This document shows positions 5,025 through 52,687 of a stretch of DNA of 64,000 nt, one piece after another; the first letter of the stretch is position 1, and each line of letters begins with the position of its first letter. Below the pieces are notes generated by a model. It made no database searches. It worked only from the letters and a program-made list of their open reading frames with translations, and had not been told where the DNA came from. The translations under genes were made by a program, and so were the position numbers. Source of the stretch: a virus (lineage: Duplodnaviria; Heunggongvirae; Uroviricota; Caudoviricetes); the IMG/VR virus record IMGVR_UViG_2703718777_000015. One strand, 5' to 3'.

Positions 5025-5405
5025 CTACTCCGCAGAACCATACAATCTACGTAACGTGGCGGCGACAGTAGATACAGATATCTCTCCGGTCGCAGCCCCT
5101 ACGGTAAGGTCTACCAGTTCAGGGGAGTCAAATACCTGCACCCCGTTACGGCGTAGAAATAACAGCGCACTGTTTAGCGCGGTACGCTTATTGGCATCAT
5201 TGAATATATGCCCTCTCGCTGTAGCCACCAGGTAGGTGGCGGAGACTTCGAAAAGGTCGGTGATCTCTTCGTAGGCAACTCTGGCCTGAACTCTCCCGAT
5301 AATGGCCTCTGCCCTACCCGGATCTGACATTCCCGGCAGGCCGCCGTAGCGGTTTATATTCGCATCATGAAGCGCAATAAGTTCTTCCGGTGATATATGC
5401 CTCAT
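5025..5405 (-). CDS. doc: Doc toxin (death on curing, Fic-fold kinase)
   Basis: 126 aa; [11 protein letters not shown] Fic/Doc motif; coupled to phd. Confidence 0.9.
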
Positions 5406-5626
5406 TATCGGTTAACCAGTTCCTTGTTGGTGGAGTCCAGGGTGTCAAACAGGGATGCAAATTCAGCATCCAGCGCCGCTTTTTTGTAGGCTTCGAAAGT
5501 AGCCTTGCTGACAATTACTGCTGGCTCACGGCCTCTGCGGGTGATTTCAACCTCTTCCCCGGCTTCAACATTGTTGAGCACTTCAGAAAGGTTGCCGCGC
5601 GCGGTACGGAAGTTAATGGATCGCAT
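5405..5626 (-). CDS. phd: Phd antitoxin (prevent host death)
   Basis: 73 aa, [18 protein letters not shown]...; stop overlaps doc start. Confidence 0.9.
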
Positions 5627-5632
5627 AAACAC

Positions 5633-5698
5633 CTCGTGTACTCGTTATGTGTACACAATTATAAACTTCACAGGCATAAAGCACCAGCACTTTGCAGC
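5633..5698 (-). promoter_or_regulatory. phd-doc promoter/operator region with repeated GTGTAC palindromic half-sites
   Basis: tgtgtactcgttatgtgtacac just upstream of phd. Confidence 0.45.
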
Positions 5699-6088
5699 TT
5701 AAATCACCGGACAATCATCAAATTCCCCACTTCGGGCATCATTGATGACATGAGTGATCACACCAAAAACAGCATTACTGCCCGTGTATCCATCGTCATC
5801 TACTGGTAACGCCTCTTTCTTCCCGGTGCTTAAATCCTCCAGGTGCTGGCGCGGATACTTCCTGTATCTCTTTATGCGATATTCACCCTCCATAGCGCAC
5901 ACAAGCAGAGAACCATCAACCGGAGTAAGCGAGGAATCAACCACCAGCAAAGCACCCTGCAATATTCCCTCACGGTGATGGCTATCAGCTGCCCGCATGA
6001 AGTAGGTTGCTGATGGATGCCTGATTAGTTGCTGATCAAGAGAAATTCGGCTTTCAACATAATCCGCCGCAGGAGAAGGGAAGCCCAT
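5699..6088 (-). CDS. humD: UmuD'-like S24 peptidase-fold protein (P1 HumD-like)
   Basis: 129 aa; LexA/UmuD C-terminal-domain-like; directly upstream of phd-doc as in P1. Confidence 0.8.
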   Translation of the reverse strand: MGFPSPAADYVESRISLDQQLIRHPSATYFMRAADSHHREGILQGALLVVDSSLTPVDGSLLVCAMEGEYRIKRYRKYPRQHLEDLSTGKKEALPVDDDGYTGSNAVFGVITHVINDARSGEFDDCPVI

Positions 6089-6109
6089 AGCGTTTTCACC
6101 TCAATAATA

Positions 6110-6125
6110 CTGTTCATTTATACAG
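6110..6125. promoter_or_regulatory. LexA (SOS) box CTG-N10-CAG between divergent humD and the lxr-like gene
   Basis: CTGTTCATTTATACAG read directly. Confidence 0.65.
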
Positions 6126-6262
6126 TATACATTAAAGAGACACCTTTGGTGCAAACGCGTTACGTACATCAACAACCGCTGATGATTTTGTGCGCTTTGC
6201 TACTATTCATCACCAACGGATCAGCGTAACCTCGTTGCCAATCAGTTAATAAGGAATTAGCT

Positions 6263-6715
6263 ATGCCTAATGGCATTCCTCTCGATCCTGTATTGCCCAA
6301 AAATTTTGACTGCACTCCTAACGAGAAACGCTCTAAAGCTCAGCTGGACGCCTGGTGGGACCATCCCTATGGGGTTACAGAACATGACGGGAAAATTGTT
6401 GTTTATTGTCTGAATGGTGGCGCGTGGGACCGTCCATCCGTGCTTGGTTTGGCAAATAACTATGATGAAGCCTGTGAACTTGCCGAAAGACAGCAGGCTA
6501 GATGGGTGAAAACACGGTCACAGCCGACATTCATGTTTTCAAAAGAACCGCCATTTATACTGGCGAGGATGCCGCAGCGACCGGATCATCAACAAGAAAT
6601 TGTTGCTGAATTTTCCTCAAGGGATGAGATGAATCTCTTCTCATTAAAGCAGGAAGAAAGGGAGCGCGTCGAAGTGTCTCCAACTCTCGACCACAACCGG
6701 ATGAACCTGGCCTAA
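6263..6715 (+). CDS. hypothetical protein (position of P1 lxr, LexA-regulated)
   Basis: 150-aa ORF divergent from humD across the LexA box. Confidence 0.55.
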   Translation: MPNGIPLDPVLPKNFDCTPNEKRSKAQLDAWWDHPYGVTEHDGKIVVYCLNGGAWDRPSVLGLANNYDEACELAERQQARWVKTRSQPTFMFSKEPPFILARMPQRPDHQQEIVAEFSSRDEMNLFSLKQEERERVEVSPTLDHNRMNLA

Positions 6716-6841
6716 CTCGCCTGGTACAGCAAAGAATTAGAGATGTCTATTGCCCGACTTGAAAACGAAAAAGCCGCTATCCAAGCCCAGCATGAAGCTG
6801 TCATTGCCAGGATACGAGAAGTTCAAAACGGTTAACTACCG

Positions 6842-7105
6842 CTATTTCTTTACGGCATCATCTTTCTGATATGCCGGATCGCTCCCTTTTGGCAACTGGA
6901 GGCTTAACTGCCAGTAGTGCCGTAGCCGTTCCATGAAATAGGTGCGCAGATTCTCTGGTTGCTCGCGGGCTACCTGTTCAGCTATGACAGGTATGTTCAA
7001 TCGCTCTTTGTACGCCACACCGCTGGCAGCCAGATCAACGTTAACCTTATCCCGTTCTTCCTGACTTTTAGCTGCAATATTCCAATCGTACATATCAAAT
7101 CCCAT
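6842..7105 (-). CDS. hot: DNA polymerase III theta-subunit homolog (P1 Hot-like)
   Basis: [33 protein letters not shown] closely resembles HolE. Confidence 0.8.
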
Positions 7106-7542
7106 CCAGAATAATTGAGTAACGACTATTATTTAACCAGCAAAGTAACTTTTAATTTTTTTTCTTCTCCCATTGATTTTTGTGCACAGCTTATCTGCCT
7201 TGCCGTGCGCAGAATCAACTTTTTTCTTCCTGATTTATCCACAAAGTTATGCACTTGCAAGAGGGCCATTTTCTAAATATTGTGATGTTTCACAAATGAA
7301 ATGAATTTTGATTAATGAAGATAAGGAGAAAATTTGAGATGCAATCATGACGTTAATAGATAGGGTCTGCATTACAGACCCCACCCGCATCAAGGAATTA
7401 GCCGTTCCCTGATGTTGTTCCGAAAACATGTGCCGTAAGCTCACGTTAACGACTTTCTTTCACCGAATCCAACTATATAAGGGTTGGGTTTCTACGTCAA
7501 CGTGAGCAAGTGCTCCTTTACATTTGACAAGGAACCACCTTA

Positions 7543-7680
7543 ATGACTGCTTTTTTTCAGTTCCTGAGTGCATTTTTAGATGCGCCTGTTATTAGCCAGA
7601 TTCTGGCTATTATCCTCATCATCGTTTTGATTTTGCTTTTAAGGTCAGTAAAAAATGGAATTATGCACTGGCTTACTTAA
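7543..7680 (+). CDS. possible 45-aa hydrophobic membrane peptide
   Basis: MTAFFQFLSAFLDAPVISQILAIILIIVLILLLRSV...; lies in AT-rich 650-bp intergenic region; below ORF-track size cutoff. Confidence 0.25.
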   Translation: MTAFFQFLSAFLDAPVISQILAIILIIVLILLLRSVKNGIMHWLT

Positions 7681-7755
7681 TGTTTCAGTGAAACATTAAA
7701 ATCTCCTTGATGTGGAAACAATCATTTTCTGTATGTGCTGGTGGGTACCTGTAGT

Positions 7756-8118
7756 TCAGCTTTCGTTGGCATTTAACTTCGTCTTTGCTTTCTCCACCAG
7801 CAACTTCCAGATGCCTATTTCATTAGCAGCCGCCTTGATGGCGGCATAAAAAGCATCTTGCTGATCGTAACGCTGAATCTGTTTTTTCAGTTTTGCCTCC
7901 ACCAATTTAATTTCATTACGTGCTTTCTGAAGCCGCCGCGCCGCCCGGTTACGTCTGTTCTTGTATAGCGCGTTAATCTCTGACAATTGCTTTAATTTAC
8001 CAGCCTGACTGCGGATTATCGCCTCTCTGACTTCTGCCGTGCGTCTCATCTGATCTCTTAAGAGTTCACCGTTTTCGATAATTCTTTCAAGGTGTTTGAT
8101 GTGATCTGCAACTCTCAT
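7756..8118 (-). CDS. hypothetical coiled-coil protein (120 aa)
   Basis: Charged helical sequence; stop overlaps upstream gene. Confidence 0.55.
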   Translation of the reverse strand: MRVADHIKHLERIIENGELLRDQMRRTAEVREAIIRSQAGKLKQLSEINALYKNRRNRAARRLQKARNEIKLVEAKLKKQIQRYDQQDAFYAAIKAAANEIGIWKLLVEKAKTKLNANES

Positions 8119-9047
8119 ACTTCACCCTCGCTTGTATCGCCAGCATCCACCAACGGCAATAAAGCCATGGCCATCTTATGAACCAACAGAGCATCGATAA
8201 TGCCAAGCGTATGCCCCGGCTTAATGTTTAATGCCGCCTCAAGGTGACACCTTTCTAGGTCACTTTTCTCGGCTTGTTTATGATGATCTGGCGTAATAAC
8301 GTCGCCCAAAACACGGCTAATTCTTTCTCGTAATTGCTGGGTGCCAGCACACTTGACCGCTGTATCGTGGAGGCGGTTAACCAGTTCGCGATAAACATGC
8401 GGCTTAATTCGGATACGTTCACCGGGGACGCCCTTTCCTTTCGCTGGCACCGAACTATCCGGAATGTCCGGATAGTTGCCAGCCTCGTAAGCTACCCGCA
8501 GCCAGTGCATGAATGTTTCAGTGGACACACAACCACAGTCCACATCGATTTTCCCGCGTTGCTGTTCCAGCCATTGCCCAAAATCCAACCTGTAAGTCTT
8601 ACTTTCAAGTTCATCACCATTGAACTCGACTTTCTGCGACGCTATGAGAGCTGATTCGTATTGTTCGCGAGTGACAACTGACTGGTATTCATCGCTATCA
8701 AGGTCACCAATTGGAAGCTCAATCTCACAACAAAAATTGCGCCCAAAGAAAGTGTCTTTTTTGTGGTCTGAGCCAAAAGCAAAAGTCGCGCATGGTGCCA
8801 TTAAATTGACACTGGGTAGGTAACAATAACTCATTCCATCAGGCCACCCGCCGCACTTAGGCAGCTCCTTCACTAACAAGTCGATAAGCTTCATTTTTTT
8901 ATCATCTTTGCAAGCCGCCAAAGCCATTTGGGCAAGTGCCAATACTTCATCGGCCGTATATCCAGCACCGTGACCATACATTTCGATACGGGAAATAGTC
9001 TCTGATATACGCTCTTCAGTGATTCTGGTCATTTCTTTTTGCGCCAT
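8115..9047 (-). CDS. hypothetical protein (310 aa), no recognised domain
   Basis: Long ORF, translationally coupled to neighbours. Confidence 0.65.
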   Translation of the reverse strand: MAQKEMTRITEERISETISRIEMYGHGAGYTADEVLALAQMALAACKDDKKMKLIDLLVKELPKCGGWPDGMSYCYLPSVNLMAPCATFAFGSDHKKDTFFGRNFCCEIELPIGDLDSDEYQSVVTREQYESALIASQKVEFNGDELESKTYRLDFGQWLEQQRGKIDVDCGCVSTETFMHWLRVAYEAGNYPDIPDSSVPAKGKGVPGERIRIKPHVYRELVNRLHDTAVKCAGTQQLRERISRVLGDVITPDHHKQAEKSDLERCHLEAALNIKPGHTLGIIDALLVHKMAMALLPLVDAGDTSEGEV

Positions 9048-9403
9048 TTCTTTTCACATTCCTTAGTCCATTTTTCAATGTTCATTTTGGCAATATCAGT
9101 CATTCCATCACCTAAGAAATACTTTCTCCGGTATGTCTTGCACTTAAACCACACTACAACAGCCACCAGCCAGAAAATAAAAGGCCATACAGCAATACCA
9201 ACGACAGCCGCGATAAAGCCCAATATCCATAAATGAAGCTCTCCAACTTCTGTTTCCGGCAATATTCTTAAAGAATTAAACAGCAGGCTGAACGAATGGT
9301 CGTATGCATTGGCAGTATAAGACATGCAATCCATATAATTAAAGTCATAGCCTGCGGCTGCCGCCCATAATGGGCGGTCAAGAAAATGTTTTAGTGTCAT
9401 CAT
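9029..9403 (-). CDS. hypothetical membrane protein (124 aa) with lysine-rich C-terminus
   Basis: TM segment LWILGFIAAVVGIAVWPFIFWLVAVVVWF. Confidence 0.55.
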   Translation of the reverse strand: MMTLKHFLDRPLWAAAAGYDFNYMDCMSYTANAYDHSFSLLFNSLRILPETEVGELHLWILGFIAAVVGIAVWPFIFWLVAVVVWFKCKTYRRKYFLGDGMTDIAKMNIEKWTKECEKKWRKKK

Positions 9404-9409
9404 ATTAAT

Positions 9410-9799
9410 TTAAGGTTCAGACCAGTTATCTTCAATAGCAATGCTTAATCTTTGTAGCCATTCTGCTAATTTCAGCATTGCTTCTCTTTCGCTTAAACCA
9501 CGAGGAAAATCATCAAGCGATATTGTTGGCTTGAAGCCCCCGTAATTATCCATTTCAACGGTCAGATTTTGCTCCAGTACGGTATTCCTTACGCGGCTAT
9601 TGTGGCGAAGCAAATATACTGAACGTGATTTATTGGTTTTGTGGTCGAGCTGATATTCGGTAAGTATCATCTGGCTTTTGCCATGACTATTACCTCTCCA
9701 CATACTTACCTCACTTAATAAAACAACTCCATGCGTAGTTGATGATTTTTTCCCACGTAATATAAATCTGCACTCCGGCAGTAAAACCAAAGCCAACAA
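9410..9799 (-). CDS. hypothetical protein
   Basis: ORF only; start uncertain. Confidence 0.35.
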   Translation of the reverse strand: MLALVLLPECRFILRGKKSSTTHGVVLLSEVSMWRGNSHGKSQMILTEYQLDHKTNKSRSVYLLRHNSRVRNTVLEQNLTVEMDNYGGFKPTISLDDFPRGLSEREAMLKLAEWLQRLSIAIEDNWSEP

Positions 9800-10196
9800 T
9801 TGCTGAAAAAATCAAAACATTTACTTTTGACATTATAAATTTTCTCTCGGTGTCGTAGGTGATAGCACCATAATTGATAATTTAGTGAGTTAGCAGTTCC
9901 ATTTTTTGGATGATTTCCGCATGAGCATCATCGTTGTCAACACTTAACTCGTTTAATGCCTCTCGCACTACATCAACTTCTTCTGGTTGGAAGAAGTCAT
10001 CTCGGTTGTCACCAAATAGAACCGAAACAAGCCTTCCACCAGCAACATCAAGATTGGCGCTAACAGGTGGCTCTTTACCATCCTCAAATCGACTACAAAA
10101 GTTATTTTTCCCATCGTTACCACCAGCGACAAATTGAATACAAACCCAGTGCTGCCGCCATCACAATTCCTACCGTTGCGAATGCTTCAGGCCAGC

Positions 10197-11468
10197 TCAT
10201 TGACCTGCCTCCTGGGGAGGTTCTGGTAGCAGCATCCAGAACAAGGCGTTCCCTAACCACGATAAAGTGCCGTCGCTCAACTCCACGTATTCCCCTTGCA
10301 CCTGTCCTGCCATATACTCACTGTGCTTTGAATAAATTAAAATCCAATCATCTTGAGCGGGCATTCGCTCACTACAGCTTATCCAACCATCCGGAGTTAC
10401 CGGAGAATTGCCATTTACCAAGTCAGCTCGAACATATAGCGTGTCATCATGGTGCTGATTGTGGCTGCACCACGTTAATTCGCTTAACTCGCCATCTTCT
10501 GGCCATACTCCAGCTGTTTGCAGCCAGATATGGGCTGGCGCATCCTGGCAAGGTGTATTAACTGGAAACTTGTAAGTTTGGCTTACAGGTTGGATACCCT
10601 GAAGCATGGCAGCGTGGCAGGCATCCTCTACGCCCTTAACTGCATCTGCGCAGTAGTTATAGCGATTGCATTCCACTAACTTCTGCTTGAGATTTTCAAT
10701 TGCTTGCGCGACATCAGCCTGTATTTCCGGAACTGGCGGAACGGCTGTCTGCTGCTCTCGAACGTCATTAGTCGCTATCGGTTCTGCTGCCAACTGACTG
10801 GCATATTTGTTAATGGTAACGATAAGCTCTTGCTCAGCCTCATCCAGACAATCACCGATACCTCGCCTGTCACCGTCAAAATCATCGAAATCGGCACGAA
10901 CCCTGGCAACCTTCATAATTGCTGACAGCACCTCACCTGGAATTACCGGAGAGTTGCCAGCCAGTCTACGCAAAACAGCCTTAACAGCCTCAATACGGTC
11001 ATCATCAACTTTTTCTACAATATTGGAATTTAAATACTTCGAAGCCTTGCTATGCCAATCGCTGGTTTTAGGGTCTTGTCCATCCATCAAACGCCAAGCT
11101 TCAGCGATTAACTCATAGCCAGTAACAGTGGCTTCCTGCGCATCACCAATCAGTTGTGTGATCTCTCTTTCAAGCATGCTTAGAGCGTTAGGCATTGGTT
11201 TTTCTTCAGGTACTACTGGCACTGGAGGGGCGGCATAAACAGGAATAACGTCCGGTTGCTCTTTATTGCTTTCATCCGTTAAAGCCCAGAATAATTTCCC
11301 GGCCGGATGTTTGAAAATATAAGCAACTGGTTCTGCTTCCAGTGATGCCAGCGCGATTTTGTATACTTCCAGATCCATTTGTGCAGTTACTAAATCAGGA
11401 TAACGATCCATAACCGTTATATTGCGCTTAATTATCTCTATTAATTGTTCTTTAGTAAAAGTGGTCAT
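10197..11468 (-). CDS. hypothetical phage protein with DUF551-like C-terminal domain
   Basis: 423 aa; C-terminal WISCSERMPAQDDWILIY region. Confidence 0.6.
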   Translation of the reverse strand: MTTFTKEQLIEIIKRNITVMDRYPDLVTAQMDLEVYKIALASLEAEPVAYIFKHPAGKLFWALTDESNKEQPDVIPVYAAPPVPVVPEEKPMPNALSMLEREITQLIGDAQEATVTGYELIAEAWRLMDGQDPKTSDWHSKASKYLNSNIVEKVDDDRIEAVKAVLRRLAGNSPVIPGEVLSAIMKVARVRADFDDFDGDRRGIGDCLDEAEQELIVTINKYASQLAAEPIATNDVREQQTAVPPVPEIQADVAQAIENLKQKLVECNRYNYCADAVKGVEDACHAAMLQGIQPVSQTYKFPVNTPCQDAPAHIWLQTAGVWPEDGELSELTWCSHNQHHDDTLYVRADLVNGNSPVTPDGWISCSERMPAQDDWILIYSKHSEYMAGQVQGEYVELSDGTLSWLGNALFWMLLPEPPQEAGQ

Positions 11469-11478
11469 TCGTTATGCC

Positions 11479-11676
11479 TCAATACACAAAATCTGTTTTA
11501 AATTCATGGTTACATTCTGGGCAGCATGTTTCGTAATCTTTTATTTCTTCACATGCCTGTTTTGCTCCAGAAAATTCCCAGAAATCAGCATCGCAAAGCA
11601 GATCGAAATTGTGGCCGCATTTTGGGCATTCAGTATCAAGTGATAAACTCCAGTAAGCAGGTGTGTTTTTGTCCAT
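11479..11676 (-). CDS. small zinc-ribbon protein
   Basis: CPKCGH...CCPECNH pairs of Cys. Confidence 0.5.
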   Translation of the reverse strand: MDKNTPAYWSLSLDTECPKCGHNFDLLCDADFWEFSGAKQACEEIKDYETCCPECNHEFKTDFVY

Positions 11677-11677
11677 A

Positions 11678-12172
11678 TCACTCTCCTTTGATGCGAATGC
11701 CTGCGGCGCGTGGCACATTAACTTCCACGATGCGCACTGTTGGTTTGTACATCTCAATCGCTGTCAGCCAGTCAGCTCCTGTCATGCGCTTTTCCGCATC
11801 GCCATTAGTCCACTGAACCGGTACACCAATAGCCTTCATCGCGATTTCTATTTCCCCGGCAATGGCGCTTTTTCCGCAACCAGTAAAACCAGAAACAACG
11901 ACAAGAACTTCACCTTTGGCTGGTTTTATTTCCCGATCTTCCAGTTCTGCAATGCGCTTTTTGTCTGCTTCCCGTTCATCAAGTAGTGCCAGCACGGTTT
12001 CTGGTCCGGCCAGAAATTTGAAGGCGTTGAGCGCATCAATATCCACACCGTAATCTTTAAGTTCCTGTTCACTTAACAAATCATCATCAACTGGCAACAT
12101 TAACAGGCGTTCCATTGCTGGAGTTGCACGTTCTGCCGCCTCACGCAGTGCCTGGTAATTAATTTCGCTCAC
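11678..12172 (-). CDS. ead/Ea22-like family protein
   Basis: N-terminal INYQALREAAERATP signature. Confidence 0.65.
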   Translation of the reverse strand: MSEINYQALREAAERATPAMERLLMLPVDDDLLSEQELKDYGVDIDALNAFKFLAGPETVLALLDEREADKKRIAELEDREIKPAKGEVLVVVSGFTGCGKSAIAGEIEIAMKAIGVPVQWTNGDAEKRMTGADWLTAIEMYKPTVRIVEVNVPRAAGIRIKGE

Positions 12173-12858
12173 TGGTTGCCTCCTTTGCGAAGCTCAGCGG
12201 CGAAGGCTACTGCGTGATCATGATGTTCAAGTGTGTATGCACACTCCGCAAACATCTCCACGCCCTGCGCCCGTACTTCAGCCAGGCATTTGCGAAACTC
12301 GGAAACGTACTGTTCGACGCTCATTCCCCAGCTAAGTGGACATTCATTGAATGTTTCGCCTTCGTGCTCTTCATCAGGTAGCTCTTTGGTAAAGAACTCA
12401 CGCTCAATGGCGTGGAGTGTGTCAGCAAAACGACGTAAGTTACTCAAACCTACCGTAATGGAGAATTCAGGAGCATCACATCCGACGCCCATCTGCTGAT
12501 AAACGGCGGTTTTGAAGGCCTTAAGCCCCGCATTCTCCGCCACCAGCGCCGCGAGATTAGTCTCAAGCTCTGCAATTCGGCACATAGCATCAATATTTGT
12601 GTCCTCCAGGCGCTTAATTTCACCAAGCAGCTCCAGTGCAACCTTTGGGTTGAACGCGGCAACATAACGAGCGTTGTTCTCTGCATTTTTCTGTCCATCA
12701 AAGCCGGTCCATTTGATAACGTCTTCACATCGTTCATCACCGGGCGTGTGCACCGCATAAGTACCAGTATCCGTCGAAATAAATGCGACCCATTCGTCTG
12801 GTGTTGCCTTTTCTGCCGCCTCACGCAGTACCTGATAGTCAATTGTCATTCTCGCCAT
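12169..12858 (-). CDS. ead/Ea22-like family protein (paralog)
   Basis: N-terminal DYQVLREAAEKATPDEW signature; start region also similar to 10197..11468. Confidence 0.65.
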   Translation of the reverse strand: MARMTIDYQVLREAAEKATPDEWVAFISTDTGTYAVHTPGDERCEDVIKWTGFDGQKNAENNARYVAAFNPKVALELLGEIKRLEDTNIDAMCRIAELETNLAALVAENAGLKAFKTAVYQQMGVGCDAPEFSITVGLSNLRRFADTLHAIEREFFTKELPDEEHEGETFNECPLSWGMSVEQYVSEFRKCLAEVRAQGVEMFAECAYTLEHHDHAVAFAAELRKGGNQ

Positions 12859-13490
12859 CCTTCACAGTTGTAATCACTACAGCCTTCAAAATCATATGGG
12901 CTGTACTGCCAGGTTATTTTTCCGCAATGCGGACAATTCCAACGCACCTTCCCGCTTCGCGACTTCTTTCTTCTGTTCTGCTCTTTCAACCAGTCAGGCA
13001 TGACCAAACCTGCGCCCTGAACCATTGTTCTGCGGTTAAAGTTATTGATATTGAACGTCCGGCGCTTTGCTGCATCAGCAATGGAAAATGGCAACCAAAC
13101 TATTCCTGGTTCGTTTTTGTTGGCGACGCTAAAGATGGTCGCTTTACTGAAGTCATCTGTTGGCAATCCACCGTGTTGAAGCCAGTAAACATCGTTGCCG
13201 TTCCAGCTACCTTTTTTGTAGGCCACATACGCAGTGCAATCTGACTCAATCGGGCTTTCTGTAGGGATGTACTGGCAATCAACGTGCCACACAGCCATTG
13301 CATCCACACTATCGGCACAAACAGGCTGATCGATATCTCGCCCACAATTCCAGGCTTTTTGGGCTTCTTCCAGCGTGTAAACATGAGCGCGATCGATATC
13401 AGAACTGTAACCATTGCCGTTATGGCAATGGAATGAGGCGTTATTACCCACAGTTTCACGCAAGCACATCATGTAAAAACGGTTACTCAC
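12846..13490 (-). CDS. hypothetical protein with C-terminal zinc ribbon
   Basis: 214 aa; CPHCG...C..YNC. Confidence 0.55.
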   Translation of the reverse strand: MSNRFYMMCLRETVGNNASFHCHNGNGYSSDIDRAHVYTLEEAQKAWNCGRDIDQPVCADSVDAMAVWHVDCQYIPTESPIESDCTAYVAYKKGSWNGNDVYWLQHGGLPTDDFSKATIFSVANKNEPGIVWLPFSIADAAKRRTFNINNFNRRTMVQGAGLVMPDWLKEQNRRKKSRSGKVRWNCPHCGKITWQYSPYDFEGCSDYNCEGWRE

Positions 13491-13698
13491 TGGATGCCTC
13501 CCAGCAAATTTGTCTTATATAAGAACTGTTAACGCGCTTTACTTTCCCGTCGAACTCCAGTTTCTTTAGACGACGCAAAACGTATGCCGTTTTGAGTGTG
13601 CGATATTTATCCCTAAGCCAGTTGGTCACGACGTAAGTCATACAGCGCCCGTGTTCTTCCAACACCCGAACTATTTCTTCGTCGGTTGGCTTGCTCAT
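13483..13698 (-). CDS. small hypothetical protein (71 aa)
   Basis: ORF with coupled overlaps. Confidence 0.45.
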   Translation of the reverse strand: MSKPTDEEIVRVLEEHGRCMTYVVTNWLRDKYRTLKTAYVLRRLKKLEFDGKVKRVNSSYIRQICWEASSE

Positions 13699-13916
13699 TT
13701 TGTCGCTCCTTCAGCTTTCTCTACTTTCGCTGCCATGATTTCCAGCTTTTGTGCTGCCGATGCCGCTAACCTGTGAAATTCTTCATCTGTTTCAACTGGA
13801 ATTGGTACAAACCTGACACCAATTTGAGCAAGGCTATGCGCCATTTCGAGACTTGCTCTTAACTCTGCTGGGGATGCTTTATTCAGGCCGACTTCCTCAC
13901 AAATAACAGATTGCAT
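13695..13916 (-). CDS. small hypothetical protein (73 aa)
   Basis: ORF with coupled overlaps. Confidence 0.45.
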   Translation of the reverse strand: MQSVICEEVGLNKASPAELRASLEMAHSLAQIGVRFVPIPVETDEEFHRLAASAAQKLEIMAAKVEKAEGATK

Positions 13917-13925
13917 ACGCTCGCC

Positions 13926-14651
13926 CTACTGAATACGCTCAAACTCGATTACCCACACCCAGGGATTAGCGTTCCAGCTTTCTTCACCATAGATGGATTC
14001 CCACAGGCGCTGGAACGCAACCTTGGCCATTGCGAAATCCCCCTTGGGAGTAAGGAATGTTCCCGGGTGATCAGGAAGCAAACTTCCAGCAGGCGGAACG
14101 CCCTCATCCCTTGCATCGCATTCGCTGATATTGTTCAACCGCTCAACGCGCACGTTGGTAATTTCCAACAGGATGCGTGATGCCCATCGCGGCATGTGAA
14201 TTGATGGACGCCACCCACCATCAAACTTTTCATTCACAGTGTGAGGTTTCCAGTCGGCATCATCGGGTATCGACCATAAACCGTAATCACCAGGCTTTTG
14301 CTCACAACTGGCCCGATAAATCCTTGCTGCGTTCTTCTCATCGCCACGACAAAGGTTGTCGTTCCAGTCCACACTGCAACCATCTTCATTGCCTAATATC
14401 GCCCATGTTTCACGAACCCAAATTCGATCGCCGACGATACCAAAGGGGCAATTGAAAACACTGCTTACACCATCAGCCCCGTACCACTGAAAACCTGCAC
14501 CAATTTCCCTAACCATCACTGGTGCTTCTGGACCAACTTCCGCAGGCTGATTTTTCATTATCCGCCGCGTCTGCGTTTTCCTTCCTTCGAGGATGGCTCG
14601 GACCATCTCATCGTTGAAAATCATGCCGCGCTCTTTCACTTCGCCTTTCAT
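13926..14651 (-). CDS. ASCH (PUA-like) domain protein
   Basis: N-terminal FNDEMVRAILEGRKTQTRR matches ASCH GxKxxxxR signature. Confidence 0.5.
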   Translation of the reverse strand: MKGEVKERGMIFNDEMVRAILEGRKTQTRRIMKNQPAEVGPEAPVMVREIGAGFQWYGADGVSSVFNCPFGIVGDRIWVRETWAILGNEDGCSVDWNDNLCRGDEKNAARIYRASCEQKPGDYGLWSIPDDADWKPHTVNEKFDGGWRPSIHMPRWASRILLEITNVRVERLNNISECDARDEGVPPAGSLLPDHPGTFLTPKGDFAMAKVAFQRLWESIYGEESWNANPWVWVIEFERIQ

Positions 14652-14660
14652 GCATCCCCC

Positions 14661-14746
14661 TTACCCATGCGCGACGATGCCGCCAAAAGTGATAGAGAAC
14701 AGCCAGAAATAGATCGCGGCCATAATGATTTTGAATGCCGTGTTCA
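14661..14746 (-). CDS. possible 28-aa hydrophobic peptide
   Basis: MNTAFKIIMAAIYFWLFSITFGGIVAHG with GGAG upstream; first ORF after a C1 operator. Confidence 0.25.
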
Positions 14747-14829
14747 TATTTTCAGCTCCTGTGATTGATTGGATACATGCCGCGCCTTGCGGCATGTTTT
14801 TATTTTCACTTTCTCTGTTTTAAAAATCA

Positions 14830-14846
14830 AGATTTATTAGAGCAAT
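14830..14846 (-). promoter_or_regulatory. C1 repressor operator (16/17)
   Basis: Minus strand ATTGCTCTAATAAATCT. Confidence 0.65.
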
Positions 14847-15352
14847 TACTGTTGATGGAGAAGCGCGTTTTCATACTCCCTGACCATTAACGTAAGTACG
14901 CCGTGACTCCTGAAAACACGCGCCACTTCAATCTTATCTTCCAGCGCGAACGCGATTTTACTTAGACCAATTTTCTTAAGGAGAGCAATCTTTGCTGGGC
15001 CGTCATTTCTGTCATCGGTGGCAGGACGCATAGATAGCAAAGGCTCAGCCCCGTTTGTTACGTGCTTACGCAACCAGGCTCGTGTTTTATCCCTGGCTAT
15101 CTCACAGCGCCCGGTTACAAACCAGACCGTGTAAACGTTAAATAACTGGCGCACCATATCAATAACTGGAGTGATGGGAGCATCAGTGTCACAGGCAAGG
15201 TTAAACTCGTTCCAGTGCTCTGTTAATGCACCTTTGCCAGGTGGTGGAAGCAAATGCAGCCTGTCTTCCGTTGCCTCTGATATCGTCCCATCAATATCGA
15301 CTATGACGATATACGGACGTTCCTGGTGTGCGTGTTTATTGAAAATACTCAA
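14846..15352 (-). CDS. HAD-superfamily phosphatase-like protein
   Basis: IVIVDIDGTISE (DxDGT motif I) near N-terminus. Confidence 0.55.
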   Translation of the reverse strand: MSIFNKHAHQERPYIVIVDIDGTISEATEDRLHLLPPPGKGALTEHWNEFNLACDTDAPITPVIDMVRQLFNVYTVWFVTGRCEIARDKTRAWLRKHVTNGAEPLLSMRPATDDRNDGPAKIALLKKIGLSKIAFALEDKIEVARVFRSHGVLTLMVREYENALLHQQ

Positions 15353-15425
15353 ATGCCCTCCTCATTGGACGAAAAAAATGCTGGTGGGACGCACTCCACC
15401 AGCATTAAAAGTGACACTGTAACTA

Positions 15426-50947: not shown

Positions 50948-50964
50948 AAATTTATTAGAGCATT
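50948..50964 (-). promoter_or_regulatory. C1 repressor operator (16/17) heading the c4-icd-ant immunity operon
   Basis: Minus strand AATGCTCTAATAAATTT. Confidence 0.65.
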
Positions 50965-51060
50965 GCTTGTTTAATAAATGCACAATTGGATCTAATAACC
51001 TCTTTTTTTTAAAGGCGAAAATATGTACCCTAAATGAGTTATAAGGCAGGTGAGGTTATA

Positions 51061-51699
51061 ATGAGAAAACTATTACTACCGTTATTATTTATGGCTGGGA
51101 CTGTTAATGCTGCATCAAGTGTAAAGGAGATTTGTACCGACTACACGAAATACCTTGGGCACGTTTACGGTTTCACTGTCAGTCAAGACGGCAAGATGAA
51201 AAAAGCTCTCCAGAATGATATGACGCGCTTAAGTTTGTCTGAAGCAATGGTTCAGCAAGAAATGTATAAGGTTGCGACAGATGATGCTGCAAAAATGTAT
51301 TATTCGAAATTTCTTAATCCTAATCTTAATGAATATAACCGTTCGGCTTTTAATCAGATGGTAGCGTATTGTGAAACTGCACCAGATATGATGATTCCTA
51401 GTTGGGCTGTATTAGTGGCTAATGGAAAAATTCGCAAAGAAGACCAAGGAAAATCTTTAAGTAGCTATATAAATAGCGAACAATTTCTGAATGCGCGTGG
51501 CATGCGCACTCAAAATACTCAAGGTGCGCTTGAGCGGAGGGCTTTAGGGACCGTTGATGCAAATGATACTGATAATTTGCCCCCTGGAATAAAAAAATGT
51601 GTTGAAACTAAGTTAACTCTGATGAAGCGGGACAGCCCTAACATTCCTGTTTCACAACTTACCGCTACGGCAACTAGTCTCTGCAAAGACGGGCTTTAA
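51061..51699 (+). CDS. secreted hypothetical protein (signal peptide), AT-rich island gene 1
   Basis: MRKLLLPLLFMAGTVNAASS signal peptide; visibly AT-rich codons. Confidence 0.6.
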   Translation: MRKLLLPLLFMAGTVNAASSVKEICTDYTKYLGHVYGFTVSQDGKMKKALQNDMTRLSLSEAMVQQEMYKVATDDAAKMYYSKFLNPNLNEYNRSAFNQMVAYCETAPDMMIPSWAVLVANGKIRKEDQGKSLSSYINSEQFLNARGMRTQNTQGALERRALGTVDANDTDNLPPGIKKCVETKLTLMKRDSPNIPVSQLTATATSLCKDGL

Positions 51700-51763
51700 A
51701 TGTAAAGATATTCGAAGAAATGTTATTTTAAGGCGTTTTATCTGTGACTGGAGATAGTTAATC

Positions 51764-52114
51764 ATGTCATCTGAACATGTTCGTAAAGGTGTAACAAATG
51801 CGAAATTCAATGAAGAGCAATCTAATATTCTCTTTATTGAAATAGGAATTCTGTCAATACTGATAGGTTTAATGTCTAAATCATGGTGGGCCTTTGGCGG
51901 TTCTTTTCTTGGACTGATTTTTAGTTTAAGAATAAAATTTCTGGCAATACCATTGATGATTGTCTTTAGCTTAGTATGGGGAGCTATTGGCTATAGTATT
52001 GGTACTTTGTTTGAATCAACAGCAGCAAGTATTGTTTTGGGGGTAATTGCTTTCCTGAGTGGCTTGGGTACTCATTTTGCTGCCGTGCAATGGGCAAATG
52101 ATATTGCAGAATAA
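51764..52114 (+). CDS. small integral membrane protein (3 TM), island gene 2
   Basis: Three hydrophobic helices. Confidence 0.6.
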   Translation: MSSEHVRKGVTNAKFNEEQSNILFIEIGILSILIGLMSKSWWAFGGSFLGLIFSLRIKFLAIPLMIVFSLVWGAIGYSIGTLFESTAASIVLGVIAFLSGLGTHFAAVQWANDIAE

Positions 52115-52136
52115 TTACAGATAAGAAGCGAAAAGA

Positions 52137-52613
52137 ATGAATATGAGATGGTTTTTATTATTTGTATCGTTAGTTTCAGCAGGATCATTTGCAAAAATTG
52201 ATCCTCTACAATGGAATGTAATTGAAGAGAGAGGGGGAAGAGAATATACAATCCATAATCATAATGGTGATAAGATAAGTTTTTTATGTGATATGGGATT
52301 CATGTATGGTTCACCAGATAGTGCAGGTAGTTTAGGCTTGTTGCTAAGTTCGTCGAATAATAAAAAGGAGTATAATGCTGACAAGAATAAAATAGTATTA
52401 ACTATAGATGGTGAGCAATATCCTTTTAGCAATCTTGGGTCAATGGTTGGAGATTCTTGGTGGTATGCCTTTTGGCAAGATGCAGCAGATTCAAATGCTA
52501 ATATGATTGATGCTTATGTTGACAATGAAAAAATTGCTACATTCCCTCTTTCTGGGCTAAGTAAGTTGTATCAACAAGCCAAAATGGATGGATGTATTAA
52601 ACGAGGCAAATGA
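52137..52613 (+). CDS. secreted hypothetical protein (signal peptide), island gene 3
   Basis: MNMRWFLLFVSLVSAGSFA signal peptide. Confidence 0.6.
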   Translation: MNMRWFLLFVSLVSAGSFAKIDPLQWNVIEERGGREYTIHNHNGDKISFLCDMGFMYGSPDSAGSLGLLLSSSNNKKEYNADKNKIVLTIDGEQYPFSNLGSMVGDSWWYAFWQDAADSNANMIDAYVDNEKIATFPLSGLSKLYQQAKMDGCIKRGK

Positions 52614-52687
52614 TCTTTCTGTGTTAAAGACTAACGCAACCAATAAAACATTGGTTGCGTAATATTCTATTATATAGATGGAATAAT

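Follow-up and report, generated by a model that had tools for sequence, protein, structure and literature searches.

A lambdoid-type accessory operon in the pap–hot/humD slot of P1-family phage-plasmids and its apparent partial deletion from canonical P1

A stretch of 64,000 nucleotides (nt) from the Caudoviricetes record IMGVR_UViG_2703718777_000015, taken as a whole and called here the window, carries genes for Ead/Ea22-like, DUF551 and zinc-ribbon proteins that a first-pass annotation, made from the sequence alone, had placed at 10197-13916 and read as a lambdoid-type early-gene array set into a P1-type backbone. The array is very probably the standard accessory-gene operon of P1-family phage-plasmids, lying between pap and hot/humD, and comparison of the sequences indicates that canonical P1 lost 8491-13956 rather than that this plasmid gained the array. 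The positions first given fall within the unit and cover only part of it: the operon extends over about 7756-14747, and the segment missing from P1 over 8491-13956. Our account of gene identity and evolution is held with high confidence. What the first-pass annotation observed is partly confirmed and its interpretation partly supported, in that the kinship with lambdoid phages holds and the array is the normal content of its slot.

The P1-type backbone stands: positions 15353-40000 of the window match P1-like phages over their full length (24.6 kilobases, kb) at 98.4% identity, and ten C1-operator-like sites were found in the window where 0.4 were expected. The array is flanked by P1 pap on one side and by pmgV/hot/humD on the other. 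The view of the array as an unusual insertion into this backbone does not survive comparison with relatives, because phage P7, the diverged P1 relative D6, most P1-like plasmids and a published comparison (PMC9603915) all show the same slot. In P7 it is occupied by upf86.8 to upf90.8, with upf88.3 carrying the GenBank note 'similar to Ead protein of lambdoid bacteriophage P22', and in D6 an Ead/Ea22 array (orf99-orf104) lies ahead of hot-humD. Most P1-like plasmids are annotated here as 'ead/Ea22-like (x2), DUF551, DUF1382', and the plasmids p15648-1 and pNORD58_2 have the array in the same slot. The pmgT-humD interval has been described as variable region 8 of eight, and in JL22 an Ea22-containing cluster ('region 6') replaces pmgT (PMC9603915). 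Ea22/DUF551 arrays at this slot are thus already known from hundreds of public records, from P7 and D6 and from the literature.

The segment by which canonical P1 differs is the following.

8491-13956 (no strand): 5.47-kb segment absent from canonical P1, with endpoints inside the genes for a 310-amino-acid (aa) and a 241-aa protein

The window aligns with P1 at 5699-8490 (99.5% identity) and at 13957-15352 (97.6%), and both alignments stop at one and the same P1 base, inside pmgT. PmgT residues 1-232 match the 241-aa protein at 229 of 232 positions, and its last 78 residues are an out-of-frame reading of the 3' part of the 310-aa gene, a pmgU-type module. PmgU corresponds to residues 200-310 of the 310-aa protein, with all 112 aligned positions identical (111 residues and the stop). 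The same module forms the C-terminus of longer proteins elsewhere, one of 432 aa in P7 and one of 360 aa in D6. The stretch ...NPWVWVIEFERIQ near the end of the 241-aa protein also occurs in P7 Upf86.8, just before its end, and therefore represents the natural C-terminus of the 241-aa protein. The P1 junction, which has only about 1 nt of microhomology, occurs in contiguous form in no phage records but the three of canonical P1; among 351 matching PLSDB plasmids, 5 have it. The single-base alignment ends, the out-of-frame PmgT, the rarity of the junction and the longer forms in P7 and D6 together point to a deletion in P1: the operon's first long gene was joined, in the wrong frame, to its last-but-one gene, which produced pmgT, and pmgU is what remains, truncated, of the latter. 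The array is indeed missing from canonical P1, and its presence there at this position was what the first-pass annotation had named as evidence against exchange between phage lineages, but its absence is the result of the 5.47-kb deletion. No statement of this deletion was found in the literature searched, a search that excluded the P1 and D6 genome papers (PMC523184, PMC5800970). The genes pmgT and pmgU, named 'putative morphogenetic', are deletion scars whose names, and functional inference from them, are therefore unsafe, and almost all work on P1 has used a natural deletion mutant.

Every real gene in 7756-14747 is on the minus strand. The operator at the head and the genes, in the order in which they would be transcribed, are as follows.

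14830-14846, minus strand: P1 C1 repressor operator, ATTGCTCTAATAAATCT, with one mismatch to the consensus, abutting the pap stop codon
14661-14747, minus strand: 28-aa hydrophobic open reading frame (ORF), MNTAFKIIMAAIYFWLFSITFGGIVAHG, with GGAG 5' of its start; kept in P1 and P7, and without annotation in P1
13926-14651, minus strand: 241-aa protein, the first long gene; phrog_874 spans residues 1-241, with no Pfam match
13695-13916, minus strand: 73-aa DUF1382 protein, a homologue of lambda Orf63 (PF07131, 100.5 bits against a cut-off of 27)
13483-13698, minus strand: 71-aa protein, phrog_9799
12846-13490, minus strand: 214-aa protein with a C-terminal four-cysteine zinc ribbon, P7 Upf87.6, phrog_2457
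12169-12858, minus strand: Ead/Ea22-like protein of 229 aa (PF13935, 71.0 bits, cut-off 27)
11678-12172, minus strand: Ead/Ea22-like protein of 164 aa (PF13935, 74.4 bits, cut-off 27)
11479-11676, minus strand: 65-aa zinc ribbon, CPKC...CPEC, phrog_4173
10197-11468, minus strand: 423-aa mosaic protein with C-terminal DUF551 (PF04448, 39.3 bits, cut-off 22)
9882-10114, minus strand: 78-aa gene, frameshifted here (1 nt lost near 10088); p15648-1 and pNORD58_2 have the intact form
9410-9703, minus strand: 97-aa protein
9029-9403, minus strand: 124-aa protein with a hydrophobic stretch, phrog_2638
8115-9047, minus strand: 310-aa protein, of which residues 200-310 are P1 PmgU
7756-8118, minus strand: 120-aa pmgV homologue, identical to P1 PmgV at 120 of 121 positions, closing the tightly packed run

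The operator at 14830-14846 is the counterpart of P1 Op88/OpmgT and of P7 Op(hea). Between pap and the first gene the sequence is about 98% identical to P1 and P7, whose annotation includes this operator and its promoters. In two runs, one reaching from the DUF1382 gene to the 423-aa gene and the other from the 97-aa gene to pmgV, gene starts overlap the stop of the gene before or lie directly next to it, and several ribosome-binding sites lie within the upstream neighbour. A promoter and terminator scan found no excess of internal promoters or terminators. The C1 operator, the P1/P7-like spacer, the coupled starts and the lack of excess internal signals together suggest that about 14747-7756 forms a single C1-repressed operon headed by this operator. 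It would be off in the plasmid prophage and transcribed early once C1 is lost. It also appears to be dispensable for lytic growth, because canonical P1 is a natural 5.47-kb deletion and its remnants pmgT, pmgU and pmgV, like lambda ea22 and orf63, are non-essential in CRISPR interference screens (PMC10695390).

Two features of the head of the operon can be recorded here. The 28-aa ORF lies downstream of the C1 operator, ahead of the first long gene, and has a good ribosome-binding site. At 14775-14797 on the plus strand, in the pap-to-operon spacer, a strong hairpin is followed by a T-run, kept in P1 and P7, which looks like a terminator for plus-strand transcription opposing the operon.

Among the operon products, the 73-aa DUF1382 protein matches PDB 8DSB with E = 1.6e-23 over residues 11-69; the PDB chain name is 'Xis (Excision72)', and we take the entry to be the published nuclear magnetic resonance structure of lambda Orf63. 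The annotation of lambda orf63 is likewise DUF1382. The DUF551 protein and the small zinc ribbons named by the first-pass annotation are present, as the 423-aa protein (39.3 bits) and the 65-aa and 214-aa proteins; the DUF551 model is wholly covered by residues 361-419, the last 60 or so residues, of the 423-aa protein. The disruption of the 78-aa gene reflects either a pseudogene or a sequencing error, and the hydrophobic stretch of the 124-aa protein probably spans a membrane. The 71-aa protein had no Pfam, NCBIfam or PDB match, and sequence searches of the PDB with the 423-, 229-, 214-, 241- and 71-aa proteins gave no significant match, an ASCH-domain match of the 241-aa protein being non-significant (E = 0.84). 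The NCBIfam scan gave nothing above threshold, only sub-threshold noise, BLASTP found no similarity between the 423-aa and 310-aa proteins, and an Rfam scan of 5600-15400 gave no match.

Three proteins had been credited with the INYQALREAAE-type N-terminus of Ead/Ea22-like proteins, and only two were found, the 164-aa protein beginning MSEINYQALREAAERATP and the 229-aa protein beginning MARMTIDYQVLREAAEKATP. A six-frame scan of the whole window for (Y/F)x(A/V)LREAAE returned these two alone, and of ten region proteins searched with PF13935 the other eight (seven from neighbouring genes of the operon, one from an alternative reading that overlaps) did not match. Alignment with lambda Ea22 and P22 EaD confirms the Ead architecture of an I-D/N-x-Q-A-L-R-E N-terminus, a coiled coil and a variable C-terminal domain. 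The variants range from 164 to about 256 aa through coiled-coil insertions and deletions and swapped C-terminal domains; the 164-aa protein is the shortest coiled-coil variant found, and the identical protein is present on 45 public contigs. Its AlphaFold2 (AF2) model is poor (predicted local distance difference test score, pLDDT, 54.6) and gives a weak indication of an alpha/beta C-terminal domain after helices at 6-78. A P-loop-like stretch, GFTGCGKS, is encoded at 11867-11890 on the minus strand, in a C-terminal domain about 80 residues long where the structure model is of low confidence. As a P-loop it is unsupported, the only matches being weak ones to kinases and ArsA (E 0.007-0.5).

A (K/R)GE ending has been reported for all Ea22 proteins, as a feature of unknown significance (PMC7093339). 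The 3' ends of the two Ead genes were compared with those of loci L012-L091.

11678-11701, minus strand: 3' end of the 164-aa Ead gene, (K/R)GE-type joint
12169-12190, minus strand: 3' end of the 229-aa Ead gene, RKGGNQ-type joint

The 164-aa protein ends AGIRIKGE, and the codons at its 3' end (AAA GGA GAG TGA) provide the next gene with a Shine-Dalgarno sequence, AAGGAG, placed about 8-9 nt ahead of its ATG. In the 229-aa protein the ending is RKGGNQ, a common variant present in 7 of 42 distinct junctions; its last codons carry an AAGGAGG ribosome-binding site, and its stop overlaps the GTG start of the next gene, that of the second Ead protein. A Shine-Dalgarno-like sequence lies within the last 15 nt of 37 of the 42 distinct 3' junctions of Ead-motif ORFs, and in 20 of 21 KGE-type junctions, which lead into many different downstream genes, an ATG follows 1-5 nt past the stop, the exception being lambda itself. 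The (K/R)GE motif may thus be a nucleotide-level joint, at once a ribosome-binding site and a patch of homology. Such a joint offers a simple reading of the conserved ending, as the ribosome-binding site for whichever gene comes next.

The 214-aa zinc-ribbon protein stands out for its conservation. Across 41 homologues three ribbon cysteines (C186, C189, C204) never vary and the fourth, C209, hardly does, amino-acid identity across relatives (the best 80 of 195 IMG/VR contigs) is 96-99%, and the gene is under purifying selection, with a ratio of nonsynonymous to synonymous substitution rates (dN/dS) of about 0.11. The AF2 model is confident (pLDDT 91.8), and no fold match was found for it among solved or viral predicted structures. 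The DNA just 3' of the gene matches the start of the 229-aa Ead gene in more than 90% of collected loci, and the pair of 214-aa and Ead genes recurs in P1-like, P22-like, Shiga-toxin (Stx) and other phages.

The relatives were gathered with the 214-aa gene as probe, and the best 80 of the 195 IMG/VR contigs comprise 36 P1-like and 44 other loci; the near-universal presence of the 214-aa gene among them is built in by this choice of probe. The two Ead genes have 5' halves that recur in 53-72% of P1-like loci and in 26-33% of the remainder; the Ead C-terminal domains recur in only 5-17% of loci. Alignment endpoints, binned by 25 nt with a mean of about 2 per bin, pile up as follows.

13500-13524: 67 endpoints, at a gene boundary
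12800-12824: 43 endpoints, directly past the LREAAEKATP codons
12500-12549: 35 endpoints, at the border of coiled coil and C-terminal domain in the 229-aa Ead protein
11950-11974: 38 endpoints, at the same border in the 164-aa Ead protein
10925-10974: 30 endpoints, at a copy of a 26-nt repeat
10350-10424: 75 endpoints, at a copy of the 26-nt repeat

The copies of the repeat, all at or near module junctions, are the following.

10388-10413 (no strand): 26-nt repeat encoding GNSPVTPDG, directly before DUF551
10934-10959 and 8456-8481 (no strand): further copies, encoding the linker GN(S/Y)P(V/D)(I/T)P

The copy at 8456-8481 is 9 nt from the P1 deletion endpoint, and the other two are at strong breakpoints in the 423-aa gene. 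The short conserved patches at which breakpoints gather are the LREAAEKATP codons at the start of the Ead genes, the transition from coiled coil to C-terminal domain, the linker GNSPV(I/T)P and the joint formed by AGIRIKGE, stop and ATG. The 423-aa protein consists of at least four modules (at least four PHROG segments) joined at GNSPV(I/T)P linkers, and its segments match different elements, namely P7, phiV10, IME10 and pNORD58_2. P7 Upf89.5 (5513-6811 of locus L001) combines the N-terminal two-thirds of the 423-aa protein with the C-terminal half of the 310-aa protein, so that P7 lacks the DUF551 module and the intervening genes. Modules appear to have been exchanged by homologous recombination at the conserved patches while the phage-plasmids were co-resident with prophages.

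The sharing of this DNA reaches well beyond the P1 family. Parts of 10197-13916 have matches in 440 phage records, chiefly of Stx-converting, P22-like and Salmonella phages, at 90-99% nucleotide identity, which together with a gene order like that of the P22-like phage 611R6 and of lambda bears out the statement that these families are typical of lambdoid accessory regions. Against Stx, P22-like and phiV10-like phages the DNA identity of the pieces is 90-98%. Further matches lie in 650 plasmids and, at 5362 chromosomal places, in 2966 out of 5426 complete genomes of E. coli. No record in the phage, plasmid and E. coli collections holds 80% or more of 10197-13916 in one piece, the best holding 76% at 95.2% identity. 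The dating of a transfer, which the first-pass annotation had proposed, is ill-posed, because the modules differ in their closest relatives and there is no single datable event. The map of joints indicates that P1-like, lambdoid, P22-like and epsilon15-like phages draw on the same mobile accessory modules.

As to function, reports on lambda and phi24B describe Ea22 as pro-lysogenic and favouring host survival, Orf63 as pro-lytic, and the exo-xis region as dispensable (PMC10834534, PMC7093339, PMC10869804); the picture of Ea22 as a tetramer with a pro-lysogenic effect comes from experiments with lambda and Stx phages (PMC10834534, PMC7093339). In some Ea22 variants of Stx phages, DUF551 is the C-terminal domain. 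In E. coli the CPS-53 yfdQRST cluster affects oriC initiation and oxidative-stress tolerance, and over-expressed YfdS, a DUF551 protein, inhibits oriC initiation together with YfdQ and YfdR (PMC4776307). By analogy with lambda and the Stx phages, the operon would probably adjust the outcome of lysis and lysogeny, host survival, or host replication and the cell cycle. That its products act on host rather than phage targets, tuning development or host physiology, is put forward tentatively, as a proposition whose chances fall a little short of even; host targets are proposed since phages whose switches are unrelated (lambda, P22, phiV10 and P1) make use of the same modules, and the sharing of modules across kinds of phage argues in the same direction.

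Several points weigh against this picture. The P1 circuit of C1, Coi, Lxc and Ant is unrelated to that of lambda, and lambda phenotypes may not transfer. Timing and function are predictions from the sequence. PDB searches with both Ead proteins did not return the solved C-terminal domain of lambda Ea22. As for recombination, clustering of endpoints is expected at any short conserved patch and is no proof that exchange took place there, and the compared loci are related, so the endpoint counts are not independent events.

A more specific proposal is that through the lost genes P1-like phage-plasmids in the wild may be able to manipulate the host or counter its defences in ways not open to laboratory P1, with the 214-aa protein and the Ead gene that follows it as the candidate pair; we consider this unlikely. 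Compatible with an operon acting on development or host physiology, and distinctly improbable as the chief role, is an anti-defence or host-takeover island whose hypervariable genes inhibit host immunity early. The early, repressor-controlled position, modules that vary extremely and are exchanged between unrelated phages, and the lack of an assigned function for most products, among them a 214-aa protein without a known fold, would fit such an island, as would a neighbourhood recognised as a variable hot spot (PMC9603915). However, the only characterised homologues, Ea22, Orf63 and YfdS, have developmental or replication phenotypes rather than anti-defence ones. No evidence was found for the anti-defence function that the first-pass annotation suggested, and PADLOC matched no component, a weak negative in that its models cover defence and not anti-defence proteins. 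Laboratory P1 does without the array and is not known for a conspicuously narrow host range.

The origin of the array admits one rival history, in which a lambdoid early cassette was recently inserted in a P1-type backbone and canonical P1 keeps the ancestral state. The lack of the array in canonical P1, the 90-98% identity of its DNA to lambdoid phages and the 97.6-99.5% identity of its flanks to P1 are what such an insertion would leave. It would, however, also have to supply both the natural C-terminus of the 241-aa protein, present too in P7 Upf86.8, and an in-frame N-terminus of 199 residues for PmgU, and it sits badly with a PmgT whose last 78 residues are an out-of-frame pmgU-type module, with a P1 junction limited to the few records given above and with Ead arrays in this slot in P7 and in the outgroup D6. 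Recent insertion is thus largely refuted and very improbable. Most unlikely of all is decaying hitch-hiker DNA without function for the phage-plasmid, since although the array is dispensable, P1 living without it, and one gene is frameshifted in this copy, 12 of 13 ORFs are undamaged, their starts coupled and supplied with ribosome-binding sites, the dN/dS of the 214-aa gene is low and the array persists in most natural P1-like plasmids.

Elsewhere in the window, positions 51000-54000 have a GC content of 0.35-0.37 against about 0.48 in the remainder and adjoin a C1 operator at 50948-50964. The ORFs there had no Pfam match save a sub-threshold one to SH3_3, and the stretch is probably another P1 variable region.

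Set against known systems, the array genes belong to the same pool as the ea and exo-xis regions of lambdoid, P22-like and Stx phages, with the same relative order, running from the Orf63-like gene through the 214-aa, Ead/Ea22 and zinc-ribbon genes to the DUF551 gene. In 611R6 the order of the 214-aa gene, Ea22, the 65-aa ribbon and DUF551 is identical, and xis follows. As in the exo-xis region of lambda and Stx phages, the Orf63/DUF1382 homologue lies upstream of Ea22-type genes, and the Ead proteins of lambda and P22 share the N-terminal motif, coiled coil and variable C-terminal domain, although the C-terminal domains of the window's proteins are unlike that of lambda Ea22. The operon would also resemble the exo-xis region and the P22-like ea region in being early, repressor-controlled and dispensable. 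It differs from exo-xis in lacking a flank of exo, bet, xis and int, and in being governed not by pL/N control but by P1 C1. Of the exo-xis set (orf60a, orf63, orf61, orf73 and ea22), the window has homologues of Orf63 and Ea22; no region protein gave a Pfam match for an orf60a (DUF1317) homologue, and homologues of orf61 and orf73, for which no model was applied, were not identified in the region. The cryptic E. coli prophage cluster CPS-53 yfdQRST is alike in holding DUF551 (in YfdS) within a host-affecting accessory cluster, but the DUF551 module of about 60 residues is the sole common part, homologues of YfdQ and YfdR not having been identified in the window.

The closest counterparts are those of the P1 family. 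In P7 the slot, the orientation and the C1 operator at the head are the same, upf87.6 is 98% identical in nucleotides to the 214-aa gene, Ead/Ea22 is followed by a large mosaic protein, and a pmgU-type module and pmgV stand at the end of the operon. P7 differs in having one Ead gene where the window has two, a single hybrid Upf89.5 where the window has separate DUF551 (423-aa) and 310-aa proteins, and no DUF1382 gene. Position, orientation and the C1 operator at the head are likewise shared with D6 and P1-like plasmids.

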